Counted from the first letter of the stretch, positions 19,663 through 41,776 are shown. The stretch: DNA of 64,000 bases from Patescibacteria group bacterium UBA3531 (GCA_002376885.1 DFOW01000001.1:15381-79380), one strand, 5' to 3'. Notes: generated by a model from the sequence alone, not told the origin. Numbers and translations are program-made.

Positions 19663-20685
19663 TTAGGTAAAGTAATTAATTTTCATTGCTGCTTTGGCTT
19701 CTTCGAGTGTTTTTTGTGCTACCTTTTGCGCTTCTTCCGTTCCCTTTTCTAAAATCTTCATGACTTCGTCTGGATTTTTTGAAAGGTATTCCCTTTTTTC
19801 TCTAATTGGTTCGATAACATCTTGAAGAACTTTTGTGAGTCTTTTTTTAAGCTCTACATCTCCCAAGCCCCCTTTTTGATATTGCTCTTTTAGTTGTGCA
19901 ACTTGATCTTTATTTGGATCAAAAATATCTAAATAGGTAAACACGACATTGCCCTCTACTTTTCCTGGCTGGTCTACATTAATATGCTCTGGATCGGTGT
20001 ACATTTTCATTACCTTCTCTTCAATTTCTTCGTTTGAGTCTGAAAGTAAAATTGCATTGCCGAGAGACTTACTTGCCTTACCTTTGCCATCAATTCCTGG
20101 GAGGCGTGCACCATGCTCTGGGACCATTGCTTTTACTTTATTAAACACTGGTGGCTCACTAGGATAAAGGCGATTAAACTTTTCTACAATTTCATTGGTT
20201 TGTTCAATCATAGGGAGTTGATCTTCTCCAACCGGCACAAGTGTTGGTTTGAATGCCAAAATATCTGCTGCTTGCGATACCGGATACGCCAAAAATCCTG
20301 CGGGGACATCTTCGTCAAAGCCTTTCTCTTTCATTTCATTCTTTACGGTTGGGTTTCGTTTTAGACGGGCAAGAGTAACTAAGTTCAAAAAATAGGTAAA
20401 GAGTTCTGGGAGCGCGGTAATCTCTGATTGAATAAACAGGGTGGATTTTTGTGGATTGAGCCCTGCGGCCAGGTTGTCTACCGCCACTTCAAATACCGAG
20501 CTACGAACCTTCTCAGGATTGTCGGCATTATCGGTAAGAGCCTGAACATCAGCAATCATAACAAACTGCTTATGGCTGTCTTGGAGTTCTACCCGATTTT
20601 TTAAGGAACCAACAAGGTGGCCCAAATGGAGCTTTCCGGTGGGCCTATCCCCCGTTAAAATTGTCTGAACATTATCTTTGTCCAT
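19663..20685 (-). CDS. trpS: tryptophanyl-tRNA synthetase (AT-rich, native-composition copy)
   Basis: 340 aa. GDRPTGKLHLGHLVG (HIGH region), LFIQSE...LVPVGEDQ, KMSKS-like GKGKASKS. Confidence 0.8.
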   Translation of the reverse strand: MDKDNVQTILTGDRPTGKLHLGHLVGSLKNRVELQDSHKQFVMIADVQALTDNADNPEKVRSSVFEVAVDNLAAGLNPQKSTLFIQSEITALPELFTYFLNLVTLARLKRNPTVKNEMKEKGFDEDVPAGFLAYPVSQAADILAFKPTLVPVGEDQLPMIEQTNEIVEKFNRLYPSEPPVFNKVKAMVPEHGARLPGIDGKGKASKSLGNAILLSDSNEEIEEKVMKMYTDPEHINVDQPGKVEGNVVFTYLDIFDPNKDQVAQLKEQYQKGGLGDVELKKRLTKVLQDVIEPIREKREYLSKNPDEVMKILEKGTEEAQKVAQKTLEEAKAAMKINYFT

Positions 20686-20703
20686 TCCGCTACTATAGCA
20701 GAT

Positions 20704-21420
20704 TTAGACGTTGGTATCTATACGATTTTCCTGTCTTCTGCCGACAATACGTGCCCACCAAAAGACGATCGCTGTGGCAAAAAATGATACCAGAGCCAAG
20801 ATAAAAGCAATGGCCGTATTTGCAGCGCTCTCTGATGGAAAGTAAAAAAATGAAGCAATTCCCCAGGCAAAACCATCAAGAGAGAGTACATATGCTTTTG
20901 CACGAGCTATTTTTGATTCTGCAATACGTGCTGTTTGAAACAGTACAAAACCAAACACACTCCCCCATACAATACTGGCAACAGCAAGCGTCCATCTAAC
21001 AAACGGGTGCGCATTCCAAAAAATAAATCCACTGTCATCTATAATTGGCTCTCTGATTTCTTGAAATGAAAAAAAGAGTGTACTAATGATCGCAAAAACA
21101 ATAACACCTAAAATGTATGGTCGATATTTAAGTATTGCTTCTCGAGCCGCAACAAACTTTGTAAAAAAGATATGGAAGTGTACAAAATAAATAAGAATAG
21201 CAGACACAATAAACCATATACCCATTATTCTAAGATCGCCGCCCGAGAGATAGAACGGCAAGCTTTGTGTATACGCATACAATGCTACCCAAATAAAAAA
21301 GAGCATCATTCCCAAGACCTCTTTTTGACGTGTCCGCAAGTACGAAACAAAAACAGAAAACACCACGAGCGTCATAACAATCGCCATAATTAACTGGAAA
21401 AGCGCCGTAAGGTTTATCAT
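20704..21420 (-). CDS. stand-alone 7TM sensor-domain paralog (no kinase domain)
   Basis: 238 aa, about 7 TM helices. Collinear similarity to the N-terminal membrane domains of the adjacent histidine kinases and to 21422..22120. Confidence 0.5.
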   Translation of the reverse strand: MINLTALFQLIMAIVMTLVVFSVFVSYLRTRQKEVLGMMLFFIWVALYAYTQSLPFYLSGGDLRIMGIWFIVSAILIYFVHFHIFFTKFVAAREAILKYRPYILGVIVFAIISTLFFSFQEIREPIIDDSGFIFWNAHPFVRWTLAVASIVWGSVFGFVLFQTARIAESKIARAKAYVLSLDGFAWGIASFFYFPSESAANTAIAFILALVSFFATAIVFWWARIVGRRQENRIDTNV

Positions 21421-21421
21421 T

Positions 21422-22120
21422 CTATTCTAGATTGTTTGGCAAAAAGCGTGGCACCCAAAATACGAGCGCCGAGAGAATGAGCGAAATAAGAGTAATGATG
21501 ATTGCAAACGAGATTTGAGAAGGGTCTGCTGACGGAAAGTATAAAACCACTGCAAGTGCCCAAATAATCCCGTTTAAGCTCAAAATATAGGCTTTTACAC
21601 GCGCTACAAGGCTCTCTGTGAAGCGTGCACTATCGAAATAGGCAAAGCTCCATAAAAGTGCCGTAAAGCCAGTTATAAGGCTAAATGCCCAGATGGCGAG
21701 AGGGTTTACATTCCATAAAATCCATCCACTTTCATCGAGTATAGGAAGCCTAAAGTCGGTAATTAAAAGCGCCATAATAAACACCCCCGACACCACCACG
21801 AGCAATCTAAAGAAGGGTCTGATTCTTTTAATAAGAGGGTTTAGGTAAAACACTTTTGTTTCAAAAAGTACGAGAACCATGACCAAAACCAAATAAACTG
21901 AAAGAATAAATCCCCATGCAACGTACTCTAAGGTTCCTACAATTAAAAACGGTAAGCTTTGTGCAAACGAATACGCAGCAAACAATGTAAAAAAGAGTCC
22001 AAGCTTAGTAAGCTCTCCTTTATGTACATCTTTTTTCCAATACGAAACAAAAAGTCCAAGCGCTGCAATGCTTGAGACAAGCGCCATAATAAATTGGAGT
22101 GCAACCGTATAATTCAGCAT
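21422..22120 (-). CDS. stand-alone 7TM sensor-domain paralog
   Basis: 232 aa. Paralogous to 20704..21420 (LFQLIMAIV../LQFIMALV.. and conserved W..P motifs). Confidence 0.5.
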   Translation of the reverse strand: MLNYTVALQFIMALVSSIAALGLFVSYWKKDVHKGELTKLGLFFTLFAAYSFAQSLPFLIVGTLEYVAWGFILSVYLVLVMVLVLFETKVFYLNPLIKRIRPFFRLLVVVSGVFIMALLITDFRLPILDESGWILWNVNPLAIWAFSLITGFTALLWSFAYFDSARFTESLVARVKAYILSLNGIIWALAVVLYFPSADPSQISFAIIITLISLILSALVFWVPRFLPNNLE

Positions 22121-22141
22121 ACTCCTATGATACTAACGTTT

Positions 22142-23824
22142 CTAAATATCCTCAAGAAAATCTTTGATCTCTTTTCGTTTTTGCACATATTCCGGGTTTG
22201 GATACTCAACAATAAATCGAGTTCCTTTTCCGCGTCCTGTAGACTCTGCCCAAATTTTACCCCCATGCGCCTCAACAATTTGCTTTGCAACATAGAGTCC
22301 CAATCCCCGCCCTTCGGTGTGCAATCTAAATGATCCTTGTGTTCGACTAAACTTCTCAAAAAGTCTACTCATCATCTCTGGCTGGATTCCCATTCCGGTA
22401 TCGGTAATAGATGTTCTGATTACTTTGTCTTGCGTGTCATTTTCAATATCAATTTTAATGGTTCCTCCTGCTGGTGTGTACTTAATAGCGTTATCAAGAA
22501 TGTTTGAATACACTTGTTCCAACTTTTCTCTGTCCCCTTCTATAATGTAATTCCCGCCAAGCGAGGCATTTAAAATTACATCAAACTTTTGTTCTTTAAG
22601 AGTGTCTCTAAAGTATTCAATCGAGGCACTTACCACATTGCGCACATTAGTTTTATCAAAAACGTATTTCATCTCCCCCTTCTCGATCCGAGAGATGTTA
22701 GTAAACTCCTGAATCACAAGCACGAGTCGCTGGCTCCCTTGAAAGATTTGATCGATTGCATTTGTTTGTTTTTTGTTATCAATTTTTCCAAACGCACCCT
22801 CAAGGAGCATTGAGGCGTATCCTTTAATCACCGTAAGGGGGGTTCTTAATTGGTGGGATGTAATAGATACAAAATCAGACTTCTCGATATCAATTTGCTC
22901 AAGGCGCTTGTTGGCAGTTTGAAGCTTTATTGCTAACTGTTCCATCTCCTCCCGCAAGTCAACCTCTTTTAAGAGTCCGCGAACCAAGTAAAAACTAAAT
23001 CCAGATACCACAAGGAAGATGGCTGTTTTAAGTGCTGTTTCAACGGGTCCTTCTGCAACAAAAATCTGAAGCAAAAGAATCACGACCATGAGTGCAATAA
23101 AGAATTGGAGCGCAACAATTTTAAAGTCCCACAACTTGTGCCGAATAATGGCGTAAGCAATAAACGATACAAAAATAAGAGTACCCACTGGTCCCATCCA
23201 GTCATTCCCTTGTACCCCAAAAGCTGGAAGAACAAGGTTAGTTAAAAGCCCTAAAACGATCGAAATTCCGGTTCCGGTAACAATAAATTTAAGTTGGTTT
23301 TTAACGTTTCCTGATGCAGTGAAGTATTTTTTAGTAAGCCATACAAGACCACCAAAAAAGTATGCAAACACAAACACTGTGTAATACCAAAATGCCCATC
23401 CAAATTCTTGTGCTTTTGCATACGGCGCAATCTCGGTTACATCAGTAATTACAGAACGCGGAATCCCTGGACTCAAAATAAGAAAAATAAGAACAATCAT
23501 TGACCCAATAACAATCCATGCTTGTCGTTTATCAAGCTTTTTATCTTCTGTTCCAAAATAATATCCAAAAAAATAAAACGCTACTGAGAAGATTGCGGCA
23601 ATCATATAGTTCATGTCACTCCAAAAAAGAGTGAGCGCATTTACCCCTGGCTGAATATAAAAGTTAATACCAATAGCCCAAATTCCTACCCCCGTAATGG
23701 TGAGCACGAAAAAGATACTACTTTTAAGTTTGCTACGAAGATAGATAAGAGACGCCAAAATAAAGTTCGTAACCGAGACGATTGCTAAAATAATGGTTCT
23801 AAAATCTACTCCTAAAAATTCCAT
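22142..23824 (-). CDS. sensor histidine kinase with N-terminal 7TM domain (HisKA + HATPase_c)
   Basis: H-box ITSHQLRTPLTVIKGY, N-box NILDNAIKYT, G1 DTGMGI, G2 GRGLGLYVAKQIVEAHGG. About 250 aa of polytopic N-terminus. Confidence 0.85.
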   Translation of the reverse strand: MEFLGVDFRTIILAIVSVTNFILASLIYLRSKLKSSIFFVLTITGVGIWAIGINFYIQPGVNALTLFWSDMNYMIAAIFSVAFYFFGYYFGTEDKKLDKRQAWIVIGSMIVLIFLILSPGIPRSVITDVTEIAPYAKAQEFGWAFWYYTVFVFAYFFGGLVWLTKKYFTASGNVKNQLKFIVTGTGISIVLGLLTNLVLPAFGVQGNDWMGPVGTLIFVSFIAYAIIRHKLWDFKIVALQFFIALMVVILLLQIFVAEGPVETALKTAIFLVVSGFSFYLVRGLLKEVDLREEMEQLAIKLQTANKRLEQIDIEKSDFVSITSHQLRTPLTVIKGYASMLLEGAFGKIDNKKQTNAIDQIFQGSQRLVLVIQEFTNISRIEKGEMKYVFDKTNVRNVVSASIEYFRDTLKEQKFDVILNASLGGNYIIEGDREKLEQVYSNILDNAIKYTPAGGTIKIDIENDTQDKVIRTSITDTGMGIQPEMMSRLFEKFSRTQGSFRLHTEGRGLGLYVAKQIVEAHGGKIWAESTGRGKGTRFIVEYPNPEYVQKRKEIKDFLEDI

Positions 23825-23825
23825 A

Positions 23826-25511
23826 TTAGCGTGTACTTATTTCGGTTACTGTTTCTGGAATCTCGACCCTGTGGCGTGCCACAAACTCGGCGAGTTCTAA
23901 ATGGAAGGTGCTCCCCGCACCCTCTCCTTTTGACTCCACCCAAATCTTTCCCCCATGCGCACGAACAATTTGCCGTGCAACATACAATCCCAATCCACGT
24001 CCTTCTTTACGTAATTTTTCTGCAGATTCGGTACGAGTATATTTTTGGAAGAGTTTTTCTTGTGCCTCTTTGCTAATACCAATCCCGTGATCTTTTACGC
24101 TCAAGTACACTTTGTGATCTCGTTTTTTAAGTGCTACTTCAATATCTGTGCCTTTAGGACTGTACTTAATGGCATTATCTATTAAGTTATTGATTACTTG
24201 GCGTAACTTAAGCGCATCTCCAATAACTGGATACTGCTGGCCTTCTCCGATATGAATTTTTAAGCGCTCGCCAACCTCAGGGGACGCTGCCTTAAGCTCG
24301 TTTACCACACTCCATAAAAGTGTCGCTACCTCAATACGGGTAAACTTATACGACATCTTCCCTTGTTCGATTCGTGAAATATTAAGAAAGTCTTCAATCA
24401 TACCAACGAGTCTTTCGCTCGCATCAAAAATATTACGGATAACTTTTTTAGCCTCTTTATTTTCGATCGGTCCAAATGTTCCCTCTAAAAGCATGGCGGC
24501 GTACCCCTTAATTACCGTAAGTGGTGTACGCAATTGGTGCGATGCGATTGACACAAACGTTGATTTTTCGACATCAATTTCTTTAAGTCGAATATTGGCA
24601 CGTTCAAGCTCTTCAGTAAGCTCTCTCACATCCTCCCGAGCCTCAACTTCTTTAAAAATTCCACGAATAAGTAAGTAACTAAAGATAGCGGTAAAAATAA
24701 AGGCGATAGATTTAAAAATAACCTTACTTAATACATCTGCAGCAACAAAAATATCTACCAAAAGAGTAAGTAACACTGCCACTACCACAATCTCGGTAAT
24801 AACGAGTTTAAAGTCCCATAACTCGCGCCTGGTAATGGCATATCCCACAATCATTAAAAGCACGATCGCAACAAGCGGCCCAAGCCACACCACGTTAGTA
24901 ACTCCAAAGAGTGGTAGAAAAAGATTTGCTGTTACCGCAACCGTGATAGAGAAGAAGGTTCCAAAAATAATGTAACGGAGTCTAATGCGCAAATCATTAC
25001 TTACTCGAGAATATTTATAAATAAGGATTGGAAACATTCCAAAAAGATACACGGCCAAAAGCGGTAAGTAGACTTTAAAAAAGAGTGGGCCATACACCAC
25101 CACATTTTGCCCGCCTTGAAACACAACATCACGAGCTGTTGCCCCTGGCGACAAAGTAAACAATAAAAGAGCAATCCATGGGCCAAATATAAAGATCTTT
25201 TGTAAAGGACTTATAACTCTATTCTCTCGTCCAATATAAAAGGCAAACAAAAACAAAAAGAGCGCCATTACAATGGGCGGGATAAATAAATAATACCCCC
25301 ACACAGGGGCAAGCCCCGTTACACTAGAGAGCTGCAAAAAGGCTCGCCCTAAAACCCAAAAACCGGCTGCAATACCTACAATCCCAAAATATCGAGTTGA
25401 GCGCTTTGTTTTATCGTGCCGATAAATACTAATCCCAATTGCAAACGATGCAAGTGCAACTAACAATAAAAGAAGTGTAATGAGTGTGTTGGCATTAAGT
25501 TCGGGAATCAT
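23826..25511 (-). CDS. sensor histidine kinase with N-terminal 7TM domain (paralog 2)
   Basis: IASHQLRTPLTVIKGY, NLIDNAIKYS, DHGIGI, GRGLGLYVARQIVRAHGG. Separated from HK1 by 1 nt. Confidence 0.85.
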   Translation of the reverse strand: MIPELNANTLITLLLLLVALASFAIGISIYRHDKTKRSTRYFGIVGIAAGFWVLGRAFLQLSSVTGLAPVWGYYLFIPPIVMALFLFLFAFYIGRENRVISPLQKIFIFGPWIALLLFTLSPGATARDVVFQGGQNVVVYGPLFFKVYLPLLAVYLFGMFPILIYKYSRVSNDLRIRLRYIIFGTFFSITVAVTANLFLPLFGVTNVVWLGPLVAIVLLMIVGYAITRRELWDFKLVITEIVVVAVLLTLLVDIFVAADVLSKVIFKSIAFIFTAIFSYLLIRGIFKEVEAREDVRELTEELERANIRLKEIDVEKSTFVSIASHQLRTPLTVIKGYAAMLLEGTFGPIENKEAKKVIRNIFDASERLVGMIEDFLNISRIEQGKMSYKFTRIEVATLLWSVVNELKAASPEVGERLKIHIGEGQQYPVIGDALKLRQVINNLIDNAIKYSPKGTDIEVALKKRDHKVYLSVKDHGIGISKEAQEKLFQKYTRTESAEKLRKEGRGLGLYVARQIVRAHGGKIWVESKGEGAGSTFHLELAEFVARHRVEIPETVTEISTR

Positions 25512-27181
25512 TATGTAGCTTGATTATTAGCGGGCGTAGCCTCTTCTTCTCGCTTTCGTTCTTGTACTGGGTTTGTGTTGGGTGGAACAAACGGAAGCTC
25601 TACACTAAACACACTTCCCTTTCCGTCACCTTCTGACTCTGCCCAAATGCGCCCTCCATGCGCCTCAACCATTTCTCGTGCAATATAGAGTCCTAACCCA
25701 GAACCACCGACTTGAATCTTCCCCACATCTTTTGCTCGGCTGAACCGCTTAAAGAGGCGTCCCGTTGTTTCCTTATTCATTCCAATACCCCTATCAACAA
25801 CTGATATTTTTATTTTTTTCTGCTCTTTGTTGTTTTCAAGAATAATTTTTACCTCTCCTTGTTTGCTGTATTTAATAGCGTTATCAACAAGGTTAGTGAT
25901 AATTTGCCGAATTTTTCCATAATCTGCTGTTACATGAATGTCCCCTTCTTGTTTTATTTCTGACACAAGCGTAAGTCCGGCAGACGAAGCAACGTGCTTC
26001 ATGCTCTCAGTTATTTCAGTAACAAGTTTTCTAACATCTACAATTCCAAAGTCATATTTCATGCGTCCTTGTTCAATGCGTGACACATTCAAAAAGTCAT
26101 CCAAAATAACATTTTGCCGTTGTGCAGAATCAAACACACGCCCCAGCATTTCTTTTGCCTTGTCGTTAATTTCTCCAAGAGACCCTTCCAACATCAAAGA
26201 GACAGCGTTTCGAATTTCTGAAATAGGAGTTTTTAGTTGGTGTGTTGCAATAGACAAGAACTCCGACTTCTCCAAATTAAGCCGCTCCAATTGCTTATTC
26301 GCCGCCGCAAGAAGCTCCCGAGCCTGCACTTCTCTAATAACGTTACGAATCAAGAGGATACCAATAATGATCGTTCCCAACAAAAGAAGTCCATCAGAAA
26401 TAATTTGTGAGAAGTCGTCTTGCGTCAGTATCCTTAAGAAAATGAATCCCCAAAGCATGAAAACAAAGAACTCTGCCAAAACAACTTTAGTATTAAAGAG
26501 CTGGTGCTTCAAAACAGCATAAAAGAGTGCTGACACCATAAAAATGACTGTTATCTGTCCCGTCCAGTTATAATCAAAATTTCCTGTTAGAGGTAAAGAT
26601 AAGTTTGTTGTAGTCCCCAAAATAGCCGTTATTAGAATTCCAAAAAAAACATAAGCAACTCGTTTTCGTTTTAAACCTGTATTGAAATAAAGTTTTTTCC
26701 CAAGAATAAAAAAGACCCATGCAAAGGTAAGGTTTAGATAAACTGCGTACATATAATGGTATAAATCTGTGAAAACAATTGTATGCTCTTTGCCGGGAGT
26801 TACAATAATTTCTCTAATCAAAAAACCATCCCACAACGAGACAAAAACTATAAAAAAGTATGGGAAAACAATTAAAAGCTTTCTCTTAAGGTCAAAGGCA
26901 TATCCTTCGTCCATAAAAATATGGGCAAAAAATATAAGGGTAATTGGTGTTCCTGCGGCGGCAAAATAAAGCACTTTTGCGTAAAGTAGTCGTAACGATT
27001 CACTTTCTACACCCCTGAACAAAACCATTGAAATTATCCATCCCAAAACAGCCAAAATAAACATCAAGAACCAAAAGTTGGTCCTTGACTTGTAATCAGA
27101 CAAAAAGACAATGGTACCGAAAGCAAGCGTAATCAAACCAACTGTTGAAATCGCTATATTTATAAGGTCAAAGTTAAACAT
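25511..27181 (-). CDS. sensor histidine kinase with N-terminal 7TM domain (paralog 3)
   Basis: IATHQLKTPISEIRN, NLVDNAIKYS, DRGIGM, GSGLGLYIAREMVEAHGG. Start overlaps the HK2 stop. Confidence 0.85.
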   Translation of the reverse strand: MFNFDLINIAISTVGLITLAFGTIVFLSDYKSRTNFWFLMFILAVLGWIISMVLFRGVESESLRLLYAKVLYFAAAGTPITLIFFAHIFMDEGYAFDLKRKLLIVFPYFFIVFVSLWDGFLIREIIVTPGKEHTIVFTDLYHYMYAVYLNLTFAWVFFILGKKLYFNTGLKRKRVAYVFFGILITAILGTTTNLSLPLTGNFDYNWTGQITVIFMVSALFYAVLKHQLFNTKVVLAEFFVFMLWGFIFLRILTQDDFSQIISDGLLLLGTIIIGILLIRNVIREVQARELLAAANKQLERLNLEKSEFLSIATHQLKTPISEIRNAVSLMLEGSLGEINDKAKEMLGRVFDSAQRQNVILDDFLNVSRIEQGRMKYDFGIVDVRKLVTEITESMKHVASSAGLTLVSEIKQEGDIHVTADYGKIRQIITNLVDNAIKYSKQGEVKIILENNKEQKKIKISVVDRGIGMNKETTGRLFKRFSRAKDVGKIQVGGSGLGLYIAREMVEAHGGRIWAESEGDGKGSVFSVELPFVPPNTNPVQERKREEEATPANNQAT

Positions 27182-28338
27182 TACCTTTGGTTAATTATTT
27201 TTTGAATATTTTTTAAGTGCTCTTCCGAAATTATTTCTTTGAAGTTTTGTGGTTTTGACAACTCAAAACCAAGACCTTCACTCATTTCAATAATTGAATC
27301 AATCAAGGGTAAATCTGCCCTATTTACTACGTAATTTCCTTTCCATTCATTTGCAGCAAGAACCATAATTTCACACATGCAACAAAAATTATCGTACTTG
27401 TCTTTTAGGCCAAAATTAAAATGGTTATCTACTCCTGGTGTGTGTACAGCACCTGCCTCGAGAACAAGTACGTCGTAATTATCCAACACTTCTGGTGCAA
27501 CATCAGACGGCTGAGCATCGTCTACAATAATGGCTCCTTTTTTGAGGTGGTTACTATTAACAACAGCATCGGGCGCATTAGTTGCAGTAACTATAATGTC
27601 TGCATCTTTTATCGAATTCATGTCGGAATCTTTGGTGACTTTAACACCGGGTCCAACCTTCTTTAGAGTTTCAATGACGGGAGTTAATCGATCAGTTTTT
27701 CTAGCCACCTCTACAAGATGTATATTTTTGTAACCCTCTCTTGCAAGAAGTTGTCCAGTTGTTGAACCAACAGAACCGCTTGCACCCACAATTGCCACCT
27801 TCATATTTTCTTTCGAGAAACCAAAGGTTTCTGTCATCTTGAAAACATTAGAAGCAACTGTGAAAGCCGTATAAGCATGTCCAGTAGTCACGTTTATATC
27901 CACCTGATCAACAATATCTAAACCACCCTTACTTAGCGAAGACATTAAACCCCCAAGTCCTACAATCTCAACTCCCATTTTTTTTGCTAGAGTTGCAGAG
28001 TCAATAATTTTCTTAAGTGCTAATTCCCTGTCTTCCATCATTTGTTGAGCAGTAATAATGACACCAATAACAAGTCCCTGCACTTCTTCACCGGTTTTTT
28101 TAGATCTAAGACCCGTAACTTTTGATATAACCACTGGCCACATTCGTTTAGCAATACCTGCTACAAATGCTTTGGGAAAAATTCTTAAAAAAGGATATTT
28201 TCTATAGATATCAGAAATTTCTCTTGCGTGAACAAGAAAAGCATATCCATACTTTTTTCTAGAAAAAGACACCGGAGAAATCCTTATAAAAAGGTCTCTA
28301 AACATCGTAAAAAAAGACCAAAAATGTTTTGCTTTCAT
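27181..28338 (-). CDS. NAD(P)-binding Rossmann-fold oxidoreductase (shikimate/amino-acid dehydrogenase-like, COG5322-like)
   Basis: VAIVGASGSVGSTTGQLLA dinucleotide-binding motif and ADIIVTATNAPDAVV. Family assignment is tentative. Confidence 0.4.
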   Translation of the reverse strand: MKAKHFWSFFTMFRDLFIRISPVSFSRKKYGYAFLVHAREISDIYRKYPFLRIFPKAFVAGIAKRMWPVVISKVTGLRSKKTGEEVQGLVIGVIITAQQMMEDRELALKKIIDSATLAKKMGVEIVGLGGLMSSLSKGGLDIVDQVDINVTTGHAYTAFTVASNVFKMTETFGFSKENMKVAIVGASGSVGSTTGQLLAREGYKNIHLVEVARKTDRLTPVIETLKKVGPGVKVTKDSDMNSIKDADIIVTATNAPDAVVNSNHLKKGAIIVDDAQPSDVAPEVLDNYDVLVLEAGAVHTPGVDNHFNFGLKDKYDNFCCMCEIMVLAANEWKGNYVVNRADLPLIDSIIEMSEGLGFELSKPQNFKEIISEEHLKNIQKIINQR

Positions 28339-28378
28339 GCAATTATTATAGCCAATACGGCCCTAGATATAAACGTAT

Positions 28379-29071
28379 TTATCCTAACTCTGGTTTTGCG
28401 GTGACGTATCTTCGGATACTTGGCATTACTATAGACACCAAAACAAAAACATACCCAACAACACCAATACTTGATCCTAAGAAACTAGTTTCTATGTTCT
28501 GGGATAAAGTATAAGAAATATCACTTATTCCCAACATTACGCCTCCGATACACAATAAGTATGAACGTGTCTTGAAAACTAGACTTACTCTCTCAGGAAG
28601 ATTTTTCATGTATTGCCAATACCACATAACAGAAACGAACATTGCCGGGAAACCTGAAAGAAAACCAACCCAGAGAGGTAAATTAAGTGCAATCACTCCA
28701 AACTCTGAAATAGTTGGCTCAACAGGAAAGAGTAACCTAAACCCAGTTACAACTAAAGCAATCACAATCAGGAGGTACGTAATAGCATTAGAATTTAAGA
28801 AAGTTAATTTAAAAATTGGTGTTTTAAATAAGAATATAACTGCCACAAAAATAAACATTCTTGTCATACTCATCAGTTTCCCCACAATCAGAGGTTCTAA
28901 GTTTAAAACAAGAAAAACAGGGAGCGAACCAAGATATATTCCTATACTTATAAAAGCAATTGAAAAATATAGTAGCGCCTTATCTTGTGTCTTTCTGTAA
29001 GAAATATTAGACCTCCAGCCAACACCAAGAGCCAAGAAAGACATCAGAGAATATAAAAATATAGCAGTCAT
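28379..29071 (-). CDS. stand-alone 7TM sensor-domain paralog
   Basis: 230-aa polytopic protein. Architecture as 20704..21420 and 21422..22120. Confidence 0.45.
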   Translation of the reverse strand: MTAIFLYSLMSFLALGVGWRSNISYRKTQDKALLYFSIAFISIGIYLGSLPVFLVLNLEPLIVGKLMSMTRMFIFVAVIFLFKTPIFKLTFLNSNAITYLLIVIALVVTGFRLLFPVEPTISEFGVIALNLPLWVGFLSGFPAMFVSVMWYWQYMKNLPERVSLVFKTRSYLLCIGGVMLGISDISYTLSQNIETSFLGSSIGVVGYVFVLVSIVMPSIRRYVTAKPELG

Positions 29072-29787
29072 TAAACTTTAGTATAACTTTGATTATTTCT
29101 AATTAAAAAGCGGCGGACGCTTGGCATCAAAATAGCAGTAACTATAAGAAGATCACCAACAAAAACGTTTGCCACACCAATCATACTATCAAAAGACCCT
29201 GTAGATGTTATGTAAAGAGAATAGCCAAACAACATAACAAGCATACCCACTGAGAACAAATATATCTTTGCACTAAAAAAAGAAAGATACCGTGGGAGGG
29301 CACTCATTAAATAGCAAACAAAAAAACCAACTAAAAAATACAATGGTAGAAGGATAGAAACATACAAAAGCGGATTAGAGATATTCTCAACAATAAAGCC
29401 GTTTTCTGTAACATAGATAGGGCTCTCTGAAACATATTGGTAATAAGCTCCTAACAAAGACAGGAGCACAATTACAATCACAACAAAACCGTTGTATTTT
29501 TGAAAAAACTTCCTCTTTTGAAATAAGGGCGCCTGAAGCAAAAAAAGGACTCCCCCATGCAACAAAACTTTTGCCAAAATAGCTGATGGTTTTAATATGC
29601 CCATATTTAAAACTTCACTCATCAAAACACCTGAGACAAGCGTCCATGAATGGAGCGAGAAGAACAAAAAAGCCAAGGCAAAAAACTTTAAGGATATGTC
29701 TTCTGTTCTTTCGAAAGATTTAAAGGAATTCCACGCAACAATGGCAGAAAATAGCCCTATAGTAGCTTGCAAATATATACCTATCAT
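29071..29787 (-). CDS. stand-alone 7TM sensor-domain paralog
   Basis: 238-aa polytopic protein, tandem with 28379..29071 (overlapping stop/start). Confidence 0.45.
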   Translation of the reverse strand: MIGIYLQATIGLFSAIVAWNSFKSFERTEDISLKFFALAFLFFSLHSWTLVSGVLMSEVLNMGILKPSAILAKVLLHGGVLFLLQAPLFQKRKFFQKYNGFVVIVIVLLSLLGAYYQYVSESPIYVTENGFIVENISNPLLYVSILLPLYFLVGFFVCYLMSALPRYLSFFSAKIYLFSVGMLVMLFGYSLYITSTGSFDSMIGVANVFVGDLLIVTAILMPSVRRFLIRNNQSYTKV

Positions 29788-29829: not shown

Positions 29830-30471
29830 CTAAGGTTTTCGAGCAATCATGTGGGCCAGCACATTCTTCATAGGGGTTCCGTCTGCCCGTGTTTCGTGCG
29901 CAGTTCCTTCTTGTTCTTTGTACACAAGAACATCCCAATCTGCATAGAGATCCTTTAGTTCGTTTTCTTCTAGATAGAAAAAAAGTTTACTAATAGGAAG
30001 TTTATAAAAATCACCTTTTTTTGTAAAAACACTTATTACATTAAAACCTCCTTTTTTTGTTGCCTCTTTAATTTTTGACACAACTTGGAATCCCTCTTTC
30101 ACCTTCAGGTGGTGAAAGACAAATGTAGACAAGACAACATCATATTCCTTAGAAAACTTTACGCTTCTAACATCTTCTGTATTGGTTTTGATATCTAAGT
30201 TTAATTCTTTTGCTTTATTTTCAACCGCACCAATCCCCGCATCAGAAGTATCGTTTATCTCAACATCAAAACCTTTGGAAGCCAAAAATAAACTATTCCT
30301 CCCATTTCCTGCGCCAATTTCATAAACAGAACCATTACTAATATAATCAAGAAGCATTGTTGTAAGTTTTGATGGCCCCACACCAAATGGGTCAGTTTCC
30401 TTCTTGTATAAATCATTGTAGTGATTTTTAGTTGTCATTGTTCTATCTTTTTTAATGGGTACGAACCCCAC
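29830..30471 (-). CDS. class I SAM-dependent methyltransferase (TehB-like)
   Basis: Motif I VYEIGAGNGRNSLFLASKGFDVEINDTS. 213 aa. Confidence 0.7.
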   Translation of the reverse strand: MGFVPIKKDRTMTTKNHYNDLYKKETDPFGVGPSKLTTMLLDYISNGSVYEIGAGNGRNSLFLASKGFDVEINDTSDAGIGAVENKAKELNLDIKTNTEDVRSVKFSKEYDVVLSTFVFHHLKVKEGFQVVSKIKEATKKGGFNVISVFTKKGDFYKLPISKLFFYLEENELKDLYADWDVLVYKEQEGTAHETRADGTPMKNVLAHMIARKP

Positions 30472-31790
30472 AGAAGGCCTGTGACGTTGTTCTTTTTATC
30501 TAGTCTAAAAGTCACGTTTTCTCCAACTTGACTAAAGACAGATGTTCCATTAACTCCAAAGACTTTTTTACTTTGAGGAATAAGAATCTCCACACCTTCA
30601 GAAGGTTGGTTTGTTCCTGGACTTGTGGAAAAGATAAAATTTTTGAGAGACACAAGTATTGTCTCACCATCAATTGATTGATAGGTGCCGGCATATTTAT
30701 CTAGTTTTACCTTTGAAGGTTTTTCATCTTTTTTATCAATAAAATAGTAAATAAGCTTTAATATTCCTGAATTAATCATCCCAAGTGGTATAGCAGAAGT
30801 GTTAGAAAGAGTAATAACACCGATATCGTTTTCAAGATCTAATGAAAAAAACGAAGCAAATCCAGGAAAACCACCGCTGTGTGCAGCTACTTTTCTGTTT
30901 TTTATCTTATAGATCTCGACACCCAAACCGTACCAATCATCTTCAACTGTCCTCCAGTGTTCCCTTAACATTTCTTTTTTAGTTTCTCGAGAAAGAATAG
31001 TATCTTTAGCCTCTTCTCTTAAGGAGAGGGCTCCAACAACTCTTGCCAAATCTTCGACATTAGAAATAAAACCAGCTGCGGGTATATAACTATTTGCTTT
31101 GCATTGTTTAAAAATTTGTCTATTGTTTTCCTCACCAGGAATAACTCTTCCATACCCTAGGGTTTCTAAGGAGTCCCCTAAGTCCACTTGTGTCGAAACC
31201 AATCCCAAAGGTTTAATTATAAACTTCCTAATATAGTCTTCGTATGAAAGACCGGAAGCTGATTTGATAACCTCCCCAAGAAGAGAAAAGGCATAATTTG
31301 AATATTTAAAATGTTTTTGGTTTTCTATCACCAAAGAATTCTTTTTTAACTCTTTTTTAAACTCATTTAGATTAGGAAATTTTCCGTTAGACCAGTGTGC
31401 TGTGGTTCCATCTCTAAAAATTCCCCCTGAGTGGGTAAGTATTTGTCGAATAGTAATATTCTCAGCTCCTTTTACCTTACCTTTTGCCGCCTTAAACCAA
31501 GGGATGTGTTTGATGAGTGGATCGTCGAGATTTAATTTCTTCTTTTCATACAATTGCAAGATTGCAATAGAAGTAAGCGTTTTTGAAATAGAAGCAATCC
31601 GATAGGGAGTTTTAGAGGTTGTTTTCTTTTTATTTTTTATATCAGAAAAGCCAAAGCCAGCCTTATAAACGAGCCTTCCTTTGTAAGTAATACCAACTGA
31701 AATACCAGGAATACGCCCATAGAATATTTTCCTGGGCATCCAAGCATTAATAACTTTTTTTGTATTTTGTATTGCTTCTTGGGTTTTCAT
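30435..31790 (-). CDS. serine hydrolase, beta-lactamase/PBP4*-family (class C-like)
   Basis: SxxK motif ASISKTLTSIAIL. YxN-like and HSGG motifs. 451 aa. Confidence 0.7.
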   Translation of the reverse strand: MKTQEAIQNTKKVINAWMPRKIFYGRIPGISVGITYKGRLVYKAGFGFSDIKNKKKTTSKTPYRIASISKTLTSIAILQLYEKKKLNLDDPLIKHIPWFKAAKGKVKGAENITIRQILTHSGGIFRDGTTAHWSNGKFPNLNEFKKELKKNSLVIENQKHFKYSNYAFSLLGEVIKSASGLSYEDYIRKFIIKPLGLVSTQVDLGDSLETLGYGRVIPGEENNRQIFKQCKANSYIPAAGFISNVEDLARVVGALSLREEAKDTILSRETKKEMLREHWRTVEDDWYGLGVEIYKIKNRKVAAHSGGFPGFASFFSLDLENDIGVITLSNTSAIPLGMINSGILKLIYYFIDKKDEKPSKVKLDKYAGTYQSIDGETILVSLKNFIFSTSPGTNQPSEGVEILIPQSKKVFGVNGTSVFSQVGENVTFRLDKKNNVTGLLWGSYPLKKIEQ

Positions 31791-31799
31791 GACACTAAA

Positions 31800-32282
31800 T
31801 TAAATTTTTTTGCAAAATATAAAATATTCATCTGGGTCCCAAAAGTTATCTTTATGTTTATGGTCTCCAGCTAGCCATAGTTTACCATCGACAGCATGGA
31901 CAACACGAAACTCACTTTTATACCCTTTAGTGTCTTCTTGTTGTCTCATTCCAATCTGTAATGATTCTAATAAGGGTTGGTTTTTATATTGTAATCTCAA
32001 TTGAGGCCCGACTTCTAGAGGACACAAACTCAGCCCGAAATCAAATATCTTATTATAAATAACTTCTGTTGTAACACCAGTAGGGTACCCTAACTCTTTT
32101 GGAGTGATACGGAACAAGTCAAGACTAGTTTTATTGTTGGATAGTATGAACTCCTTACTATAGAGAACATCCTTTGCCCATGATCCAATAATCATCTTAC
32201 TTTTTTGAATAGCTGTCTCTAGGTCGTTGATATTTTTATGCGTGCCAAGTTCTATAGTTTTCCAAATTTTGAAATCTTTCAT
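31800..32282 (-). CDS. hypothetical protein
   Basis: 160-aa ORF with backbone-like composition. No motif recognised. Confidence 0.35.
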   Translation of the reverse strand: MKDFKIWKTIELGTHKNINDLETAIQKSKMIIGSWAKDVLYSKEFILSNNKTSLDLFRITPKELGYPTGVTTEVIYNKIFDFGLSLCPLEVGPQLRLQYKNQPLLESLQIGMRQQEDTKGYKSEFRVVHAVDGKLWLAGDHKHKDNFWDPDEYFIFCKKI

Positions 32283-32351
32283 GATTGAGTATTAAAGATA
32301 TGGATAAGTCTCAGTAATACAATATGATTATATTCTAGTTTTTACATCTAT

Positions 32352-32388
32352 AAATAAAAGGTGCTATTTTCGAGCACCTTTTATTGCT
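32352..32388. terminator. hairpin terminator flanked by A- and T-runs
   Basis: AAAAGGTGCT-ATTTTCG-AGCACCTTTTATT immediately downstream (minus sense) of the GC-rich ORF 32413..32826. Confidence 0.55.
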
Positions 32389-32412
32389 GTGGGTTGCAGG
32401 TACATCCTCCTC

Positions 32413-32826
32413 TTATCGGTGCTGGTAGTAGTCGCACATGGCGCAGTTGCCGACGGCTTGCGTCTCTCCATCCCAGCGCCACATCACAGGGATGGCGGAC
32501 TCCAACCTGTCGCTTCCTTCCTGCACGAAGGAAACCTTGAGCCCAGACTCGAACGAGACTGTGCCCTTCGGAAGAGGCATGAAGTTGCCATCTTCTCCGT
32601 GCAGGTGAGGCAGCGCAACCGCAAGACCATGTTCGGAAAGGCTCTTCATCAGCTCCTGAACTTCAGGAGTCTGAACAGCTTCCAGTCCCCTCTTGATTTC
32701 CGGATGAATATCGTGCAAATTGCTCACAGCTTTTCCTTTATTTTGAACGCCTGGAAACGACCCCAGGTCTACACCCAAATTACTAAAGTCCCCTACTGTT
32801 GTCAAATCTTGACAACAGTAGGCCAT
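32413..32826 (-). CDS. hypothetical protein encoded by a 450-bp GC-rich islet
   Basis: 137-aa ORF with a sharp GC shift against the flanks. Balanced composition, ending CAMCDYYQHR. Strand choice is uncertain: a + ORF (32389..32841) overlaps it. Confidence 0.3.
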   Translation of the reverse strand: MAYCCQDLTTVGDFSNLGVDLGSFPGVQNKGKAVSNLHDIHPEIKRGLEAVQTPEVQELMKSLSEHGLAVALPHLHGEDGNFMPLPKGTVSFESGLKVSFVQEGSDRLESAIPVMWRWDGETQAVGNCAMCDYYQHR

Positions 32827-32894
32827 AGGTATAAAATATAGTCAAATTGTGTTGTTAGTATACATCAACTGGTGTATAATAAAAGCCCAAGACA

Positions 32895-33677
32895 ATGAAG
32901 AATTTACGAGAAAACCTTATACAATTTGGACTCTCAGACAAGGAGGCGGACGTCTACCTTGCCCTGCTTTCTGCTGGTCCATCACTTGGTAGTGTAATCG
33001 CCCAAAAGGCAAAGATTAATAGGAGCACCACCTATCTTCATCTAGACACCCTTATCAAAAAAGGTCTTGTAAGCGTGAGCGAAGAGAACAAAATTAAAAC
33101 TTTTACCCCTGCCCCACCGGACAGAATCATCCACCTTCTTGAGGAATCTCTTTCTAAATATACCGAGCTTTTGCACGTTGCAGATGCAATGCTCCCTGAT
33201 CTTAAAAAAATGTACGCCACTGAAAAGAAGAAGGAGGATGCAAAACCAAAAGTACAACTTTTTGAAGGGACCCAAGGCCTAAAAAGTGCTTACGAGGACA
33301 TGCTAGAGACCAATGATGATGTGCGTACTTATGCCTCAATGGAAGACATACACACCCTTTTGCCAGAATACTTCCCTAAATACTACAAACGTAGAGCTGA
33401 AAAAGGTACTCAAATACGAGTAATCTTCCCTGACATTAAAAAAGTAACAGAGCGCGTAAAAGCTATCCCCTCAAAAATTAGAGACGCACGGGTGCTTTCA
33501 AAAGAAGCTCACGACTTTTCTCCTGAGATTAATATCTATGGAAGCAAAATTGCATTTATTTCTCCTAAAGAACAGTTTGGACTCATTATTGATAGTTCTG
33601 AACTCTCAAACGCACTCAAAACAATCTTTGAGATCTCTTGGCTTGCTGCCAAAAAACTAAGTCTCCAAACCGCTTAA
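32895..33677 (+). CDS. TrmB-family transcriptional regulator
   Basis: N-terminal wHTH LGLSDKEADVYLALLSAGPSLGSVIAQKAKINRSTTYLHLDTLIKKGLV. 260 aa. Upstream TTGTTA-N17-TATAAT promoter with a TATACA..TGTATA inverted repeat. Confidence 0.7.
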   Translation: MKNLRENLIQFGLSDKEADVYLALLSAGPSLGSVIAQKAKINRSTTYLHLDTLIKKGLVSVSEENKIKTFTPAPPDRIIHLLEESLSKYTELLHVADAMLPDLKKMYATEKKKEDAKPKVQLFEGTQGLKSAYEDMLETNDDVRTYASMEDIHTLLPEYFPKYYKRRAEKGTQIRVIFPDIKKVTERVKAIPSKIRDARVLSKEAHDFSPEINIYGSKIAFISPKEQFGLIIDSSELSNALKTIFEISWLAAKKLSLQTA

Positions 33678-33682
33678 AATTT

Positions 33683-34363
33683 TTAGTCTTTGTTATATAA
33701 TTCTTCTGCTCTCCGATGGAGCCACTTGGAAGATTCTATCTCGTTTAAAGGAGTGTGTTCAGAAAAATAGGTGTGTTCTTTGTCCCACCGAATGGTTCTT
33801 TTAGACCATGGTAACCACCATGGGCCTTTAATTTTAATTGTCGTTAACAGTATTGGTGCTTTTGATTTGTAATGTATATGTTGTGGGCCTCGTTTAAATT
33901 CTCCAATTCCATCTTTTTTATGGACTCTCCCTTCGGCAAAAATCATTACTGCCTCACCCTTTTGTAGTCTGTCGACAGTTGATGCCGTTTTGTCTTCAAT
34001 AGTAAGAACCCCGTCTTTATCGCGAGGAGGAAGGATTAATACACCATTTGGCCAATAAATAAATGGATAGGTGATCACCCAATAAATTATTTTTAAAAAC
34101 CAGTGCCGAGGGCTTTGTGTCGCTAAAAAACGAATGGGTAGTATGCTCCAGTAATATTTAAAAGGAAGACTTTGAACAAACAACCAAGGGTCAATAACTG
34201 TCTTATGGTTCCCTACAATCAAAAGGGGTCGTGTTTTAATATCTTCGTATCGGGGCAAAACAACCTTTGTGTACAAAATAGTTTTTAAAACAGGATGAGC
34301 AACGAGCCATTCAAAAACCTGCCAGGAAATGACAATAAAACGTTTAATTTTTGATTCTTTCAT
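33683..34363 (-). CDS. 1-acyl-sn-glycerol-3-phosphate acyltransferase family (PlsC-like), AT-rich copy
   Basis: HX4D motif VGNHKTVIDP and FAEGRV (FPEGTR-like) motif. Confidence 0.7.
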   Translation of the reverse strand: MKESKIKRFIVISWQVFEWLVAHPVLKTILYTKVVLPRYEDIKTRPLLIVGNHKTVIDPWLFVQSLPFKYYWSILPIRFLATQSPRHWFLKIIYWVITYPFIYWPNGVLILPPRDKDGVLTIEDKTASTVDRLQKGEAVMIFAEGRVHKKDGIGEFKRGPQHIHYKSKAPILLTTIKIKGPWWLPWSKRTIRWDKEHTYFSEHTPLNEIESSKWLHRRAEELYNKD

Positions 34364-34431: not shown

Positions 34432-35091
34432 CTAACTCCGTCCGTGTGCCTCTGCCTCCCGATAGAGCGCAGAGAGCCGCGCATGAATGAACTCGACGCC
34501 CTCTTCTCCCGACATGCCCGAAGGCACGACAAGAGGAGCGATGTCCCAGTTCATCACGACTCGCCACCTGAAGGCGCTCACCTTCTGGCGATAGAGCGCA
34601 ACGAGCCAGATGGACGCACCGCTCTGCCGATGAACCGCCACGATCCCCTTCCGAAGCGGGCCAACCCCAGGACCCTTCCAGATCTTCCCTTCGGGATAGA
34701 TGAGGACGGACGTCTTCTGCTCGACGAGAGCTTCGACCGCGCCAGGGATTGCATGCTGCTTGGGGATGATCATGTTCCTCCGGTAGAACCACCGGTAGAA
34801 CTGACGGAACGGCGGCCACCAGAAGAGCTCCTTCCACGTGAACCTCTCCTTGGCGACGAACCGAATCGGCGCGATGGACTTGAAGCTTGCAAGGACAAGC
34901 GTCAGGACCGCGAAGGGGTGGTCGAGAGTCGACCGGTGGGTGGACCCGATGATCCGAGGCTCGCTCCCAAGAGCCGGGCCCGGATCGTTCAAGACCGTCA
35001 CCTTGTGGAAGGGAGCCAGAAGCCGGGGAAGCCACCAGTGTTCCTTCACCTGGAACCTGGCCGTCTCGCTAAGCTGTGTCTTGATCGACAT
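34432..35091 (-). CDS. PlsC-like acyltransferase, GC-rich paralog
   Basis: HX4D THRSTLDHP, PEG motif IYPEGKIWKG. SD AAGGAGG. Extended -10 (TGGTATAGT) upstream. GC-rich codon usage. Confidence 0.65.
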   Translation of the reverse strand: MSIKTQLSETARFQVKEHWWLPRLLAPFHKVTVLNDPGPALGSEPRIIGSTHRSTLDHPFAVLTLVLASFKSIAPIRFVAKERFTWKELFWWPPFRQFYRWFYRRNMIIPKQHAIPGAVEALVEQKTSVLIYPEGKIWKGPGVGPLRKGIVAVHRQSGASIWLVALYRQKVSAFRWRVVMNWDIAPLVVPSGMSGEEGVEFIHARLSALYREAEAHGRS

Positions 35092-35157
35092 GCCAGATTC
35101 CTCCTTAGGGTTTGGATGAACTTACTGACAAGCACTATACCACATATTTATAAAAAA

Positions 35158-40654: not shown

Positions 40655-41776
40655 CTAGACACGAGTCGCTACCACGATCGTGTATGCACCATGCTCATTA
40701 CCTTCGTTGGAAAGACCTCGGTCAATCTTCTCGATCTCTTCACCGAGAAGCCCCTCCACCAGAAGGTTGCCTGGAAGCACGGACGACACTGTCGGATAGG
40801 TGTACATTTCGTCGATGACGAAATGTTGGTCGCTCACCATACTCTCGACGTCCGCAAAGGTGTACGGCCGTGCGAACACGGAGAACACCTCAGGTCCCGT
40901 CTCGGTATCCAGGTGGACATCGAGGCATTCCTCGTCGAGGTTGATCTGGGCTGCGAGACCCAGGGGCCACGGAAGGAATTGCTTGTAGACGAGAGCATCC
41001 AGGTTATAGAACGAGGCGAACAGCTTTCCACCCGGGGAGAGGACGTCGTGAAGGTTCGCAAGAAGCTTGCGGATCTCCCTGATGTCACTCCCTGTGCCCA
41101 TGGAAAGCGCTGCAAACGAGACAGAAGTCTGCGGGAACGAAAGGTTTCCTTCGTCCAGGTCATGGACGAAGAACTCGGCATTTCCGATGGACTTCTTCTT
41201 GGCCTCTCTGATCATGTGAGGACTGATGTCATAGCCCACCACACGATCGAACCTTGCCGCAAGGCGAGCGGCCTGAATCCCTGTAGCACAGCCAAGATCA
41301 AGGGCGCGCTCACGCTCGTCCTTGCTCATGTTCTCGACGATTCGATCGAGTACCTCTCTTTCGAACCTGAGATACGAGTCCGTGCTGAAGGTACCCCCCA
41401 GGAACTTCTCCTCGTACCATGGGGCGACACGCTCGGTTAGGTCGAGAAGCGCTTGCTTACGATCCCTCGGAGTCTTCTCCAGGGAATGGTCTCCCTGGAG
41501 AAGTCGAAGCTGTTCGTGACACGACTGAAGGATGGAGAAGTACATCAGCGCCCCAGCAAAATGGGAACGTACTCCGTACTTCTTTGCCCACTCCTGGGCT
41601 GCCTTCATCACACGAGCATCCTCGATTTCCTCTCGGATGATCGGCTGACCCTGGGAACGCTTGTAACGTTCCACCTGTGCCGCAAGCTCCATCCGACGAG
41701 CAAAGATCGCAAGGATCGTCTCGTCGACTGCCCCAAGCCTCTTTGCGAGGATCTCGAGGTTGGGTAGTTCTGTCAT
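40655..41776 (-). CDS. chorismate mutase (AroQ/CM_2) domain fused to class I SAM-dependent methyltransferase
   Basis: The N-terminal 90 aa, LEILAKRLGAVDETILAIFARRMELAAQVERYKRSQGQPIIREEIEDARVM, align to AroQ catalytic positions (Arg11, Arg28, Lys39, Glu52, Gln88 equivalents). Central MTase motif I LDLGCATGIQAARLAARFDRVVGYDIS and motif II/III GGKLFASF. Start is 13 nt after the trpS2 stop. Confidence 0.6.
   Translation of the reverse strand: MTELPNLEILAKRLGAVDETILAIFARRMELAAQVERYKRSQGQPIIREEIEDARVMKAAQEWAKKYGVRSHFAGALMYFSILQSCHEQLRLLQGDHSLEKTPRDRKQALLDLTERVAPWYEEKFLGGTFSTDSYLRFEREVLDRIVENMSKDERERALDLGCATGIQAARLAARFDRVVGYDISPHMIREAKKKSIGNAEFFVHDLDEGNLSFPQTSVSFAALSMGTGSDIREIRKLLANLHDVLSPGGKLFASFYNLDALVYKQFLPWPLGLAAQINLDEECLDVHLDTETGPEVFSVFARPYTFADVESMVSDQHFVIDEMYTYPTVSSVLPGNLLVEGLLGEEIEKIDRGLSNEGNEHGAYTIVVATRV

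Follow-up and report, generated by a model that had tools for sequence, protein, structure and literature searches.

Three HisKA_7TM histidine kinases and four stand-alone membrane proteins in a Patescibacteria locus: a likely expansion of a conserved acyltransferase-reductase-kinase operon

What might a bacterium gain from three histidine kinases, four stand-alone seven-transmembrane (7TM) proteins and an oxidoreductase encoded in one array that holds no response regulator? The question is raised by a locus on the minus strand of a 64,000-nucleotide stretch from Patescibacteria group bacterium UBA3531 (GCA_002376885.1, DFOW01000001.1:15381-79380), hereafter the window. A first reading made from the DNA alone (the sequence-only reading) proposed that the array could encode a heteromeric membrane sensing complex, of a kind seldom described. 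Its account of nine minus-strand genes is borne out by the open reading frames (ORFs), which run over 19663-29787 in the order M1 and M2 (7TM proteins), OX (the oxidoreductase), HKa, HKb and HKc (kinases), M3 and M4 (7TM proteins) and trpS. The arrangement, however, appears to be an expansion of a conserved operon rather than a singular invention, and accessory membrane proteins beside kinases are known from LiaFSR and VraTSR. We consider it somewhat probable that the locus is an anciently expanded acyltransferase-reductase-kinase-M operon, in which the kinases would sense an acyl-derived cue within the membrane and the M proteins would serve as their accessory partners.

The first part of this argument is the pairing of OX with a kinase. 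One genome per species was scanned with OX as the only anchor, and the fetched loci were searched with local hidden Markov models (HMMs) for the kinase core, the kinase N-terminus, M, receivers and acyltransferases. The 22 Patescibacteria OX loci with downstream DNA (L001-L004, L010-L018, L020-L023, L025-L028 and L030) amount to 20 distinct ones, L001-L003 being one lineage. In every one of these 20 the next gene after OX encodes a HisKA_7TM kinase, at a distance of -118 to +138 nucleotides (nt). The same succession is found in other phyla: in a Clostridia locus and in an unclassified bacterium, HisKA_7TM-GAF kinases that have receivers beside them come after OX, and in a Nitrospiraceae locus a HisKA_7TM protein truncated where the contig stops. 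In Chloroflexi (L056, L065, L068, L075, L077 and L086) a receiver protein of about 300 amino acids (aa) and then very large kinases (1,100-2,970 aa) come after the OX homologue, so that the link of OX to two-component signalling extends beyond HisKA_7TM kinases. Most OX homologues of Armatimonadota and Firmicutes have no such kinase neighbour. The tie between oxidoreductase and kinases, proposed from the window alone, thus holds across Patescibacteria and in further phyla; we found no description of it in the literature searched.

The nature of OX (27181-28338, minus strand, 385 aa) gives this pairing its context. The sequence-only reading had suggested that it may supply a redox or ligand input. 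Rather than a generic redox input, it appears to be an acyl-ACP (acyl carrier protein)-reductase-like, NAD(P)-dependent thioester reductase of the COG5322 type, which belongs to a lipid-type operon with PlsC-like acyltransferases. Among NCBIfam models, OX matches the PigE N-terminal region (1.1e-39) and TIGR04058, AcACP_reductase (7.6e-23), in both cases below the equivalog cut-off. Its 81.4 bits against the cut-off of 449.7 for TIGR04058 mark it as a relative of acyl-ACP reductase (AAR) and not as an equivalog. Its matches in the PDB are 4ppm and 6jzq/6jzu. The Rossmann motif GASGSVG at residues 185-191 is invariant in 20 homologues, as are C319 and C320, and Cys320 aligns with the catalytic Cys294 of AAR. 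Judged by its sequence, OX is an AAR-like thioester reductase that has retained the catalytic Cys, with activity to match predicted. Shikimate, amino-acid and glutamyl-tRNA reductases were considered and rejected, since only the Rossmann part matches those families. In 16 of these Patescibacteria loci, a PF01553 acyltransferase gene, recognised by the local HMM, abuts the start of OX.

The second part is the pairing of the kinase with M. To avoid the bias of an OX anchor, we assembled an M-anchored sample from cluster look-ups and from a metagenome scan with a degenerate DNA pattern derived from the M hairpin; the latter returned 35 loci, 23 of which contain an M gene. M genes were clustered at 70% identity, and the clusters in which 700 nt or more of DNA precede M were counted, 22 in all. 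In 15 of these 22 lineages the gene immediately before M encodes a kinase of this family, mostly at a gap of -28 to +49 nt; in two further clusters the C-terminal end of a kinase is visible where the contig breaks off. In other words, an accessory gene is conserved beside the kinase gene, as in systems of the three-component type, and the earlier suggestion that the stand-alone proteins are functionally tied to the kinases finds support. All components form one tight block, acyltransferase-OX-kinase-M, in L101, and L012 has OX-kinase-M. Kinase-M pairs also occur without OX, whose upstream position then goes to another acyl-handling enzyme: an NAD_binding_4 thioester reductase in L005 and a FeeM/autoinducer-synthase-like enzyme in L095, while L096 has a transglutaminase-core protein that is itself preceded by two acyltransferases. 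One groundwater lineage carries a 143-aa, coiled-coil-like ORF between kinase and M (L113:5053-5481, L116:930-1358 and L123:11608-12036), which is rich in repeats of F-D-S-V-H-T-K-M-D-x-G-F-K-E-V.

What, then, are the M proteins? M1 (29071-29787, 238 aa), M2 (28379-29071, 230 aa), M3 (21422-22120, 232 aa) and M4 (20704-21420, 238 aa), all on the minus strand and all predicted to be 7TM, are mutually related, as the sequence-only reading had it. BLASTP joins M1 to M2 at 2e-11, M2 to M3 at 1e-7 and M3 to M4 at 5e-40, and the M-family HMM recovers M1, M2 and M3 at 1e-39, 3e-52 and 3e-64, respectively. None of them scores above cut-off against Pfam or NCBIfam models, and we found no description of the family in the literature searched. 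When 1.84 billion representative proteins were scanned in full with HMMER, the family came to 127 clusters, all 97-258 aa long, and none of the 127 representatives is fused to a kinase or to any other domain. Searches of word-indexed proteins with M profiles recovered no more than 4-6 proteins, a shortfall that is probably due to the abundance of hydrophobic words in the index. In a rough neighbour-joining tree (no support values) M1 and M2 form a divergent branch and group with M genes that do not adjoin kinases, such as that of L008. Tandem M-M pairs are found elsewhere too (L092).

The AlphaFold2 model of M4, built from an 85-sequence alignment (mean predicted local distance difference test score, pLDDT, 96.3; predicted template modelling score 0.91), has seven helices and a short β-hairpin at 126-133 between helices 4 and 5; the long start used for M4 is backed by the orthologue P0004. 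By positive-inside analysis, the N-terminus and the hairpin lie outside and the C-terminus inside. The best-conserved stretch of the family is the hairpin motif R-x-P-I-I-x-x-S-G-F-I-F-W-N-x-N-P, with P125 conserved at 91%, G131 at 89%, W135 at 84% and N136 at 85%, and Lys175, at the cytoplasmic start of helix 6, reaches 92%. The conserved positions are thus Pro, Gly, Trp, Asn, Lys and aromatics. Foldseek comparison of the M4 model with the PDB gave generic bundles like those of G-protein-coupled receptors (GPCRs) and rhodopsins only (E of at least 0.02, TM-score about 0.5), matches so weak and generic that we draw no family assignment from them, and at the level of sequence neither the M profile nor that of the kinase N-terminus had a match in the PDB. 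A rhodopsin or heliorhodopsin identity was rejected: Lys175 is placed in helix 6 and not in helix 7, and the matches to rhodopsins (E about 0.15, TM-score 0.46-0.49) are just as weak as those to GPCRs.

These properties bear on a different explanation of the M-kinase neighbourhood, namely that M is a lipid-handling membrane protein (an exporter, a flippase or a membrane enzyme) for the product of the acyltransferase and the reductase, and that the kinase merely shares a lipid operon with it. Such a role would suit the lipid character of the operon, with its PF01553 acyltransferases, AAR-like reductase and nearby MMPL transporter, as well as the tight block of L101. However, M tracks the kinase and not the enzymes, as the kinase-M pairs of L005, L095 and L096 illustrate, and most acyltransferase-OX-kinase operons have no M. 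Moreover, the His/Asp/Cys set typical of membrane hydrolases or transferases is absent from the conserved M positions, and no transporter fold came up among the fold matches. We regard a lipid-handling M as unlikely.

Another possibility, the one that the sequence-only reading had preferred, sees in the M proteins very remote homologues of the kinase 7TM module: sensor-only paralogues that lost or never had an output and would act as decoy or co-receptor subunits of heteromeric sensors. The two do share a predicted layout: four transmembrane (TM) helices, an external β-hairpin (at about 123-137) and three TM helices, with the N-terminus outside. The collinearity claimed for them accordingly holds for predicted topology, but does not extend to sequence. 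BLASTP of M against the kinase N-termini gave nothing at E<0.1, a shallow profile-profile comparison gave 0.3% probability, and none of 85 M-family members matches HisKA_7TM at E<=0.1. M1 does align collinearly with the Pfam HisKA_7TM model, at an insignificant 9.7 bits (E=0.97) against the gathering score of 28.6; M2-M4 do not match. When 85 M sequences were compared with 25 kinase N-termini by hhalign, the alignment was collinear (M 16-145 with kinase 14-143, extending at low mact to 2-244 with 1-241) and scored 31.6 at a probability of 25%. Reversed-sequence controls scored 32.9 and 36.0, so that the value reflects membrane-helix composition, and we rejected it as evidence of homology. Conversely, a lenient search with the M HMM (E<=10, --max) across the ORFs of all loci collected tagged no kinase ORF downstream of OX, no fused intermediate was met among the family representatives, and any identity of fold would depend on a kinase N-terminal model of low confidence (see below). 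A lack of significant similarity between the stand-alone proteins and the kinase N-termini is what the sequence-only reading had itself named as grounds for abandoning the idea, and this lack is what BLASTP, the Pfam HMM and hhalign all report. With no signal of paralogy above controls, the decoy variant loses its footing as well. The strong adjacency of kinase and M speaks for this explanation; we see remote homology of M and the kinase sensor as possible, and the sensor-paralogue explanation as a whole as rather improbable.

The three kinases, HKa (25511-27181), HKb (23826-25511) and HKc (22142-23824), all on the minus strand, are members of the HisKA_7TM family by their Pfam scores. The N-terminal domain (PF16927, at about residues 13-233) is matched with 41.1 (HKa), 31.5 and 56.7 bits against a gathering score of 28.6, HisKA with 47.6 (HKa), 63.5 and 54.8 bits against 26.9, and HATPase_c with 99.6 (HKa), 106.8 and 104.5 bits against 26.4. 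All three translations show intact H, N, G1 and G2 boxes, just as first described: T/S-H-Q-L-K/R-T-P for the H box, NLVDNAIKY, NLIDNAIKY and NILDNAIKY for the N boxes, DRGIGM, DHGIGI and DTGMGI for the G1 boxes, and GSGLGL and GRGLGL for the G2 boxes. The polytopic N-terminus, by contrast, was put at about 250 aa but comes to some 290 aa. It is predicted to have nine helices, of which four precede a β-hairpin at 123-137, three follow it, and two more stand before the dimerization and histidine phosphotransfer (DHp) region. The model behind this description comes from a shallow alignment of three sequences (pLDDT 50.6) and is usable for the order of elements and the positions of helices only.

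One feature sets these kinases apart. Canonical HisKA kinases such as HK853, EnvZ and CpxA have Glu or Asp at H+1, directly after the phosphorylated His, and this residue is regarded as the catalytic base. None of the three window kinases has the acidic residue expected of a HisKA-type kinase at this position. All three have Gln, as do 24 of 25 related kinases (L001-L030, L095 and L096), which may point to unusual kinase or phosphatase chemistry across the whole subfamily.

How old is the expansion? In the related lineage L001-L003, whose OX is 63% identical to that of the window, OX is followed by three kinases, one M, trpS and aspS. Each window kinase is closer to the kinase at the same position in L001 (52% identity for HKa, 51% for HKb and 47% for HKc) than to its paralogues (31-37%), and the third kinase of L001 precedes an M gene, as HKc does. 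These one-to-one positional orthologues indicate that the kinase triplication is old and has been maintained. Among the kinases, the sensor parts are 22-29% identical and the catalytic cores 41-47%; sensor parts so much more diverged than the cores suggest three different specificities. In the neighbour-joining tree, equally rough and without support values, HKa groups with single OX-coupled kinases and HKb and HKc with M-coupled ones.

The acyltransferases of the window stand further from OX than in its relatives. Two PlsC-type acyltransferase genes on the minus strand, at 33683-34363 (PF01553, 3.5e-9) and at 34432-35091 (a local acyltransferase HMM match on ORF 34435-35121), lie with an MMPL/RND-type membrane transporter gene upstream of them (35229-37559, minus strand; Pfam MMPL, 1.5e-9) at a distance of 5.3 kb upstream of OX. 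No such gap exists in L004, where these genes come immediately before OX, in the order MMPL-acyltransferase x2-OX-kinase. The separating 5.3 kb, which include M1 and M2, are not present in relatives. Their part at 29830-33677 holds genes for a TehB-type methyltransferase and a β-lactamase-family serine hydrolase with DUF3471, a 160-aa ORF without a Pfam match and, on the plus strand, a TrmB-family regulator, and it looks like an insertion or rearrangement. The GC content of the MMPL-type gene is 0.62 against 0.43 for the window (0.51 against 0.42 for its counterpart in L004), which could reflect a strong composition bias of the gene or a foreign origin.

Since gene order is generally conserved in small Patescibacteria genomes, it might be argued that the array amounts to ordinary duplicated orphan kinases with unrelated membrane neighbours, kept together by inherited gene order and served by regulators encoded elsewhere. 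Long-range order is indeed conserved in Patescibacteria: trpS-aspS-scpA-scpB is common to L094, L096 and the window. The junctions in the array had all been taken for overlaps or gaps of 1-2 nt, implying translational coupling. From M1 to trpS they measure -1, 40, -1, -1, 1, 21, 1 and 18 nt, so that the description fits five of the eight (an overlap or 1 nt), including the 1-nt overlaps of M2 with the M1 stop and of HKa with the OX stop and the 1 nt between M3 and M4. It does not fit the other three (18-40 nt), among them the 21 nt between HKc and M3. Scans of the region for promoters and terminators gave no more candidate sites than shuffled sequence does, which leaves the operon structure presumptive and suits inherited order; Rfam and tRNA scans of the window found nothing. 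What speaks against this explanation is that OX and HisKA_7TM genes adjoin each other in further phyla, where the flanking genes differ. The kinase-M pair with its short gaps is retained while the genes downstream change (trpS in some lineages, a CTP-transferase gene and then serS, or a receiver in others), and the three kinases persist as one-to-one orthologues in a genome with an OX of only 63% identity. Mere inheritance of gene order accordingly strikes us as quite unlikely to account for the locus.

The last gene of the array is trpS (19663-20685, minus strand), a tryptophan-tRNA ligase gene (TIGR00233, 261.8 bits). Its place downstream of the kinase-M pair is conserved, but it stands outside the signalling unit; the order M-trpS-aspS is also seen in L001, L094, L095 and L096. 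More generally, aminoacyl-tRNA synthetase genes (hisS, trpS, aspS and serS) flank the operon in many lineages. In the closest relative, L001, two HisRS-type genes lie directly upstream of OX (L001:7161-9783), one for a 436-aa paralogue without the anticodon-binding domain and the other hisS. In the window itself, a second class-I tRNA synthetase gene of the Trp/Tyr type (PF00579, 332 aa) stands at 41790-42788, in a GC-richer zone, adjoined by a chorismate-mutase/methyltransferase fusion at 40655-41776.

Where would the phosphoryl group go? The sequence-only reading found no receiver gene in the 64 kb, and a search of six-frame ORFs with phmmer and with an HMM of CheY, PhoB, Spo0F and NarL finds none in the window either. 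A cognate regulator just beyond its ends, which would have turned the array into plain two-component duplications, was likewise not seen in the 10 kb past either end, that is, within about 83 kb in all. The same HMM works, since it finds receivers readily in other loci. In the loci examined the kinases usually have no regulator gene beside them. Two sets of relatives are more telling. In Saccharibacteria, a single-domain receiver of about 135 aa (L023:5220-5621, L025:8811-9221 and L026:777-1181) is divergently transcribed directly upstream of acyltransferase-OX-kinase and likely represents the cognate regulator type for this kinase family. In two metagenomic lineages (L110:2445-2834 and L112:1240-1629), a CheY-like receiver of about 125 aa comes right after M, giving kinase-M-receiver.

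Taken together, these observations are consistent with a conserved operon that would comprise a PlsC-type acyltransferase, OX, a nine-helix HisKA_7TM kinase, M in a subset of lineages and a CheY-like receiver in a few. In the window, one kinase would have become three diverged kinases, the M gene a tandem pair, M3/M4, and a second, divergent pair, M1/M2, would have come to stand upstream of OX within the stretch that separates it from the acyltransferases. Since the kinases have no extracytoplasmic domain beyond the short external β-hairpin, sensing is expected within or at the membrane. The cue would most likely be a hydrophobic acyl-derived product of the aldehyde or alcohol type, or a lipid state, made by the co-encoded enzymes, and the three kinases might each respond to a different one. 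M would be a dedicated membrane partner, accessory or co-sensor, with its acidic and aromatic hairpin outside and its conserved Lys inside. A receiver encoded elsewhere, probably with a single domain like those of relatives, would accept the phosphoryl group. Gene content, domain families, paralogy within each group, conserved order and predicted folds and topology are direct results. Acyl or membrane sensing with M as partner we infer from the conserved adjacency, from a sensor that lies wholly in the membrane and from the conservation of the external hairpin; the ligand, the contact between M and kinase and the identity of the regulator are put forward in this sense.

Several points weigh against the expanded-operon reading just outlined. 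M is not required by this type of kinase, as most OX-kinase operons have no M gene, and five of the 22 M lineages, as well as M1 and M2, have no preceding kinase. With Gln in place of Glu or Asp at H+1, ordinary kinase activity is not assured. The identity of the ligand is a guess from gene neighbours. Finally, the generally conserved gene order of these small genomes means that some of the adjacency may be inheritance and not function.

If the reading is right, it may matter beyond this locus. Patescibacteria have tiny genomes and no fatty acid synthesis, and must rebuild scavenged lipids. Two acyl-handling enzymes combined with a wholly membrane-embedded sensor kinase would offer a testable handle on lipid or host sensing in these bacteria. 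The orphan Pfam domain HisKA_7TM gains its first consistent functional neighbour across phyla, and the M family, which has a confident 7TM model and no domain model of its own, becomes a candidate new class of kinase partner. One may go further and suppose that the cassette is a system for both production and reception of signals. OX, or in some lineages the FeeM/LuxI-like or FAR-like enzyme in its place, would then turn acyl chains scavenged from the host into a signal, be it a fatty aldehyde, an alcohol or an N-acyl compound, and the kinase together with M, with its GPCR topology, would read this lipid signal in the membrane. Three kinases and four M proteins would make up a combinatorial receptor set for self- or host-derived lipids, M being the co-receptor. 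This would be the first candidate for a chemical system of cell-cell or host-sensing signalling in these episymbionts. Signalling between cells by an OX-kinase cassette is, however, pure inference, and we think the supposition as a whole improbable.

Several known systems invite comparison. OX aligns over about 290 residues with cyanobacterial AAR (6jzq) and the PigE N-terminal domain (4ppm), sharing the Rossmann motif and the catalytic Cys. It differs from AAR in scoring far below the equivalog cut-offs and in having no aldehyde-deformylating oxygenase as partner, being coupled to a PlsC-type acyltransferase and a kinase instead. The HisKA_7TM domain has been noted mainly in haloarchaeal and other kinases and merely catalogued (PMC5847659). 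The window kinases resemble these in passing the gathering score for the N-terminal domain and in carrying HisKA and HATPase_c, but have two extra predicted helices before DHp and Gln at H+1, and kinases of this operon type are fixed beside an acyl-thioester reductase. We know of no member of the family with a known ligand. The closest analogues of the enzyme-kinase pair are CqsA/CqsS and LuxM/LuxN of Vibrio, in which an autoinducer synthase is paired with a polytopic receptor kinase (PMC3285556, PMC13174287). There, too, an acyl-thioester enzyme is encoded beside a kinase whose sensor for the hydrophobic product is a helix bundle only, a likeness deepened by the FeeM/autoinducer-synthase-like gene at the OX position in L095. 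Neither the enzymes nor the membrane domains are homologous, however, and CqsS and LuxN are hybrid kinases with receivers, whereas the window kinases are not. For M, the nearest comparison is with the three-component systems LiaFSR and VraTSR, which include an accessory membrane protein (PMC3543457, PMC9380581). An output-less membrane protein presumed to modulate the kinase is encoded in the kinase operon in all of them. M, by contrast, is a 7TM protein unrelated to LiaF or VraT and encoded downstream of the kinase, it occurs in tandem paralogue pairs, and the regulator lies outside the operon here. DesK, finally, is a 5-TM HisKA_3 kinase that senses lipid state within the membrane and whose adjacent regulator controls a desaturase. 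Although its sensor part is not homologous to that of the window kinases, these resemble it in having no extracytoplasmic domain and in their context of lipid metabolism, which makes the sensing of membrane properties by the three kinases plausible.

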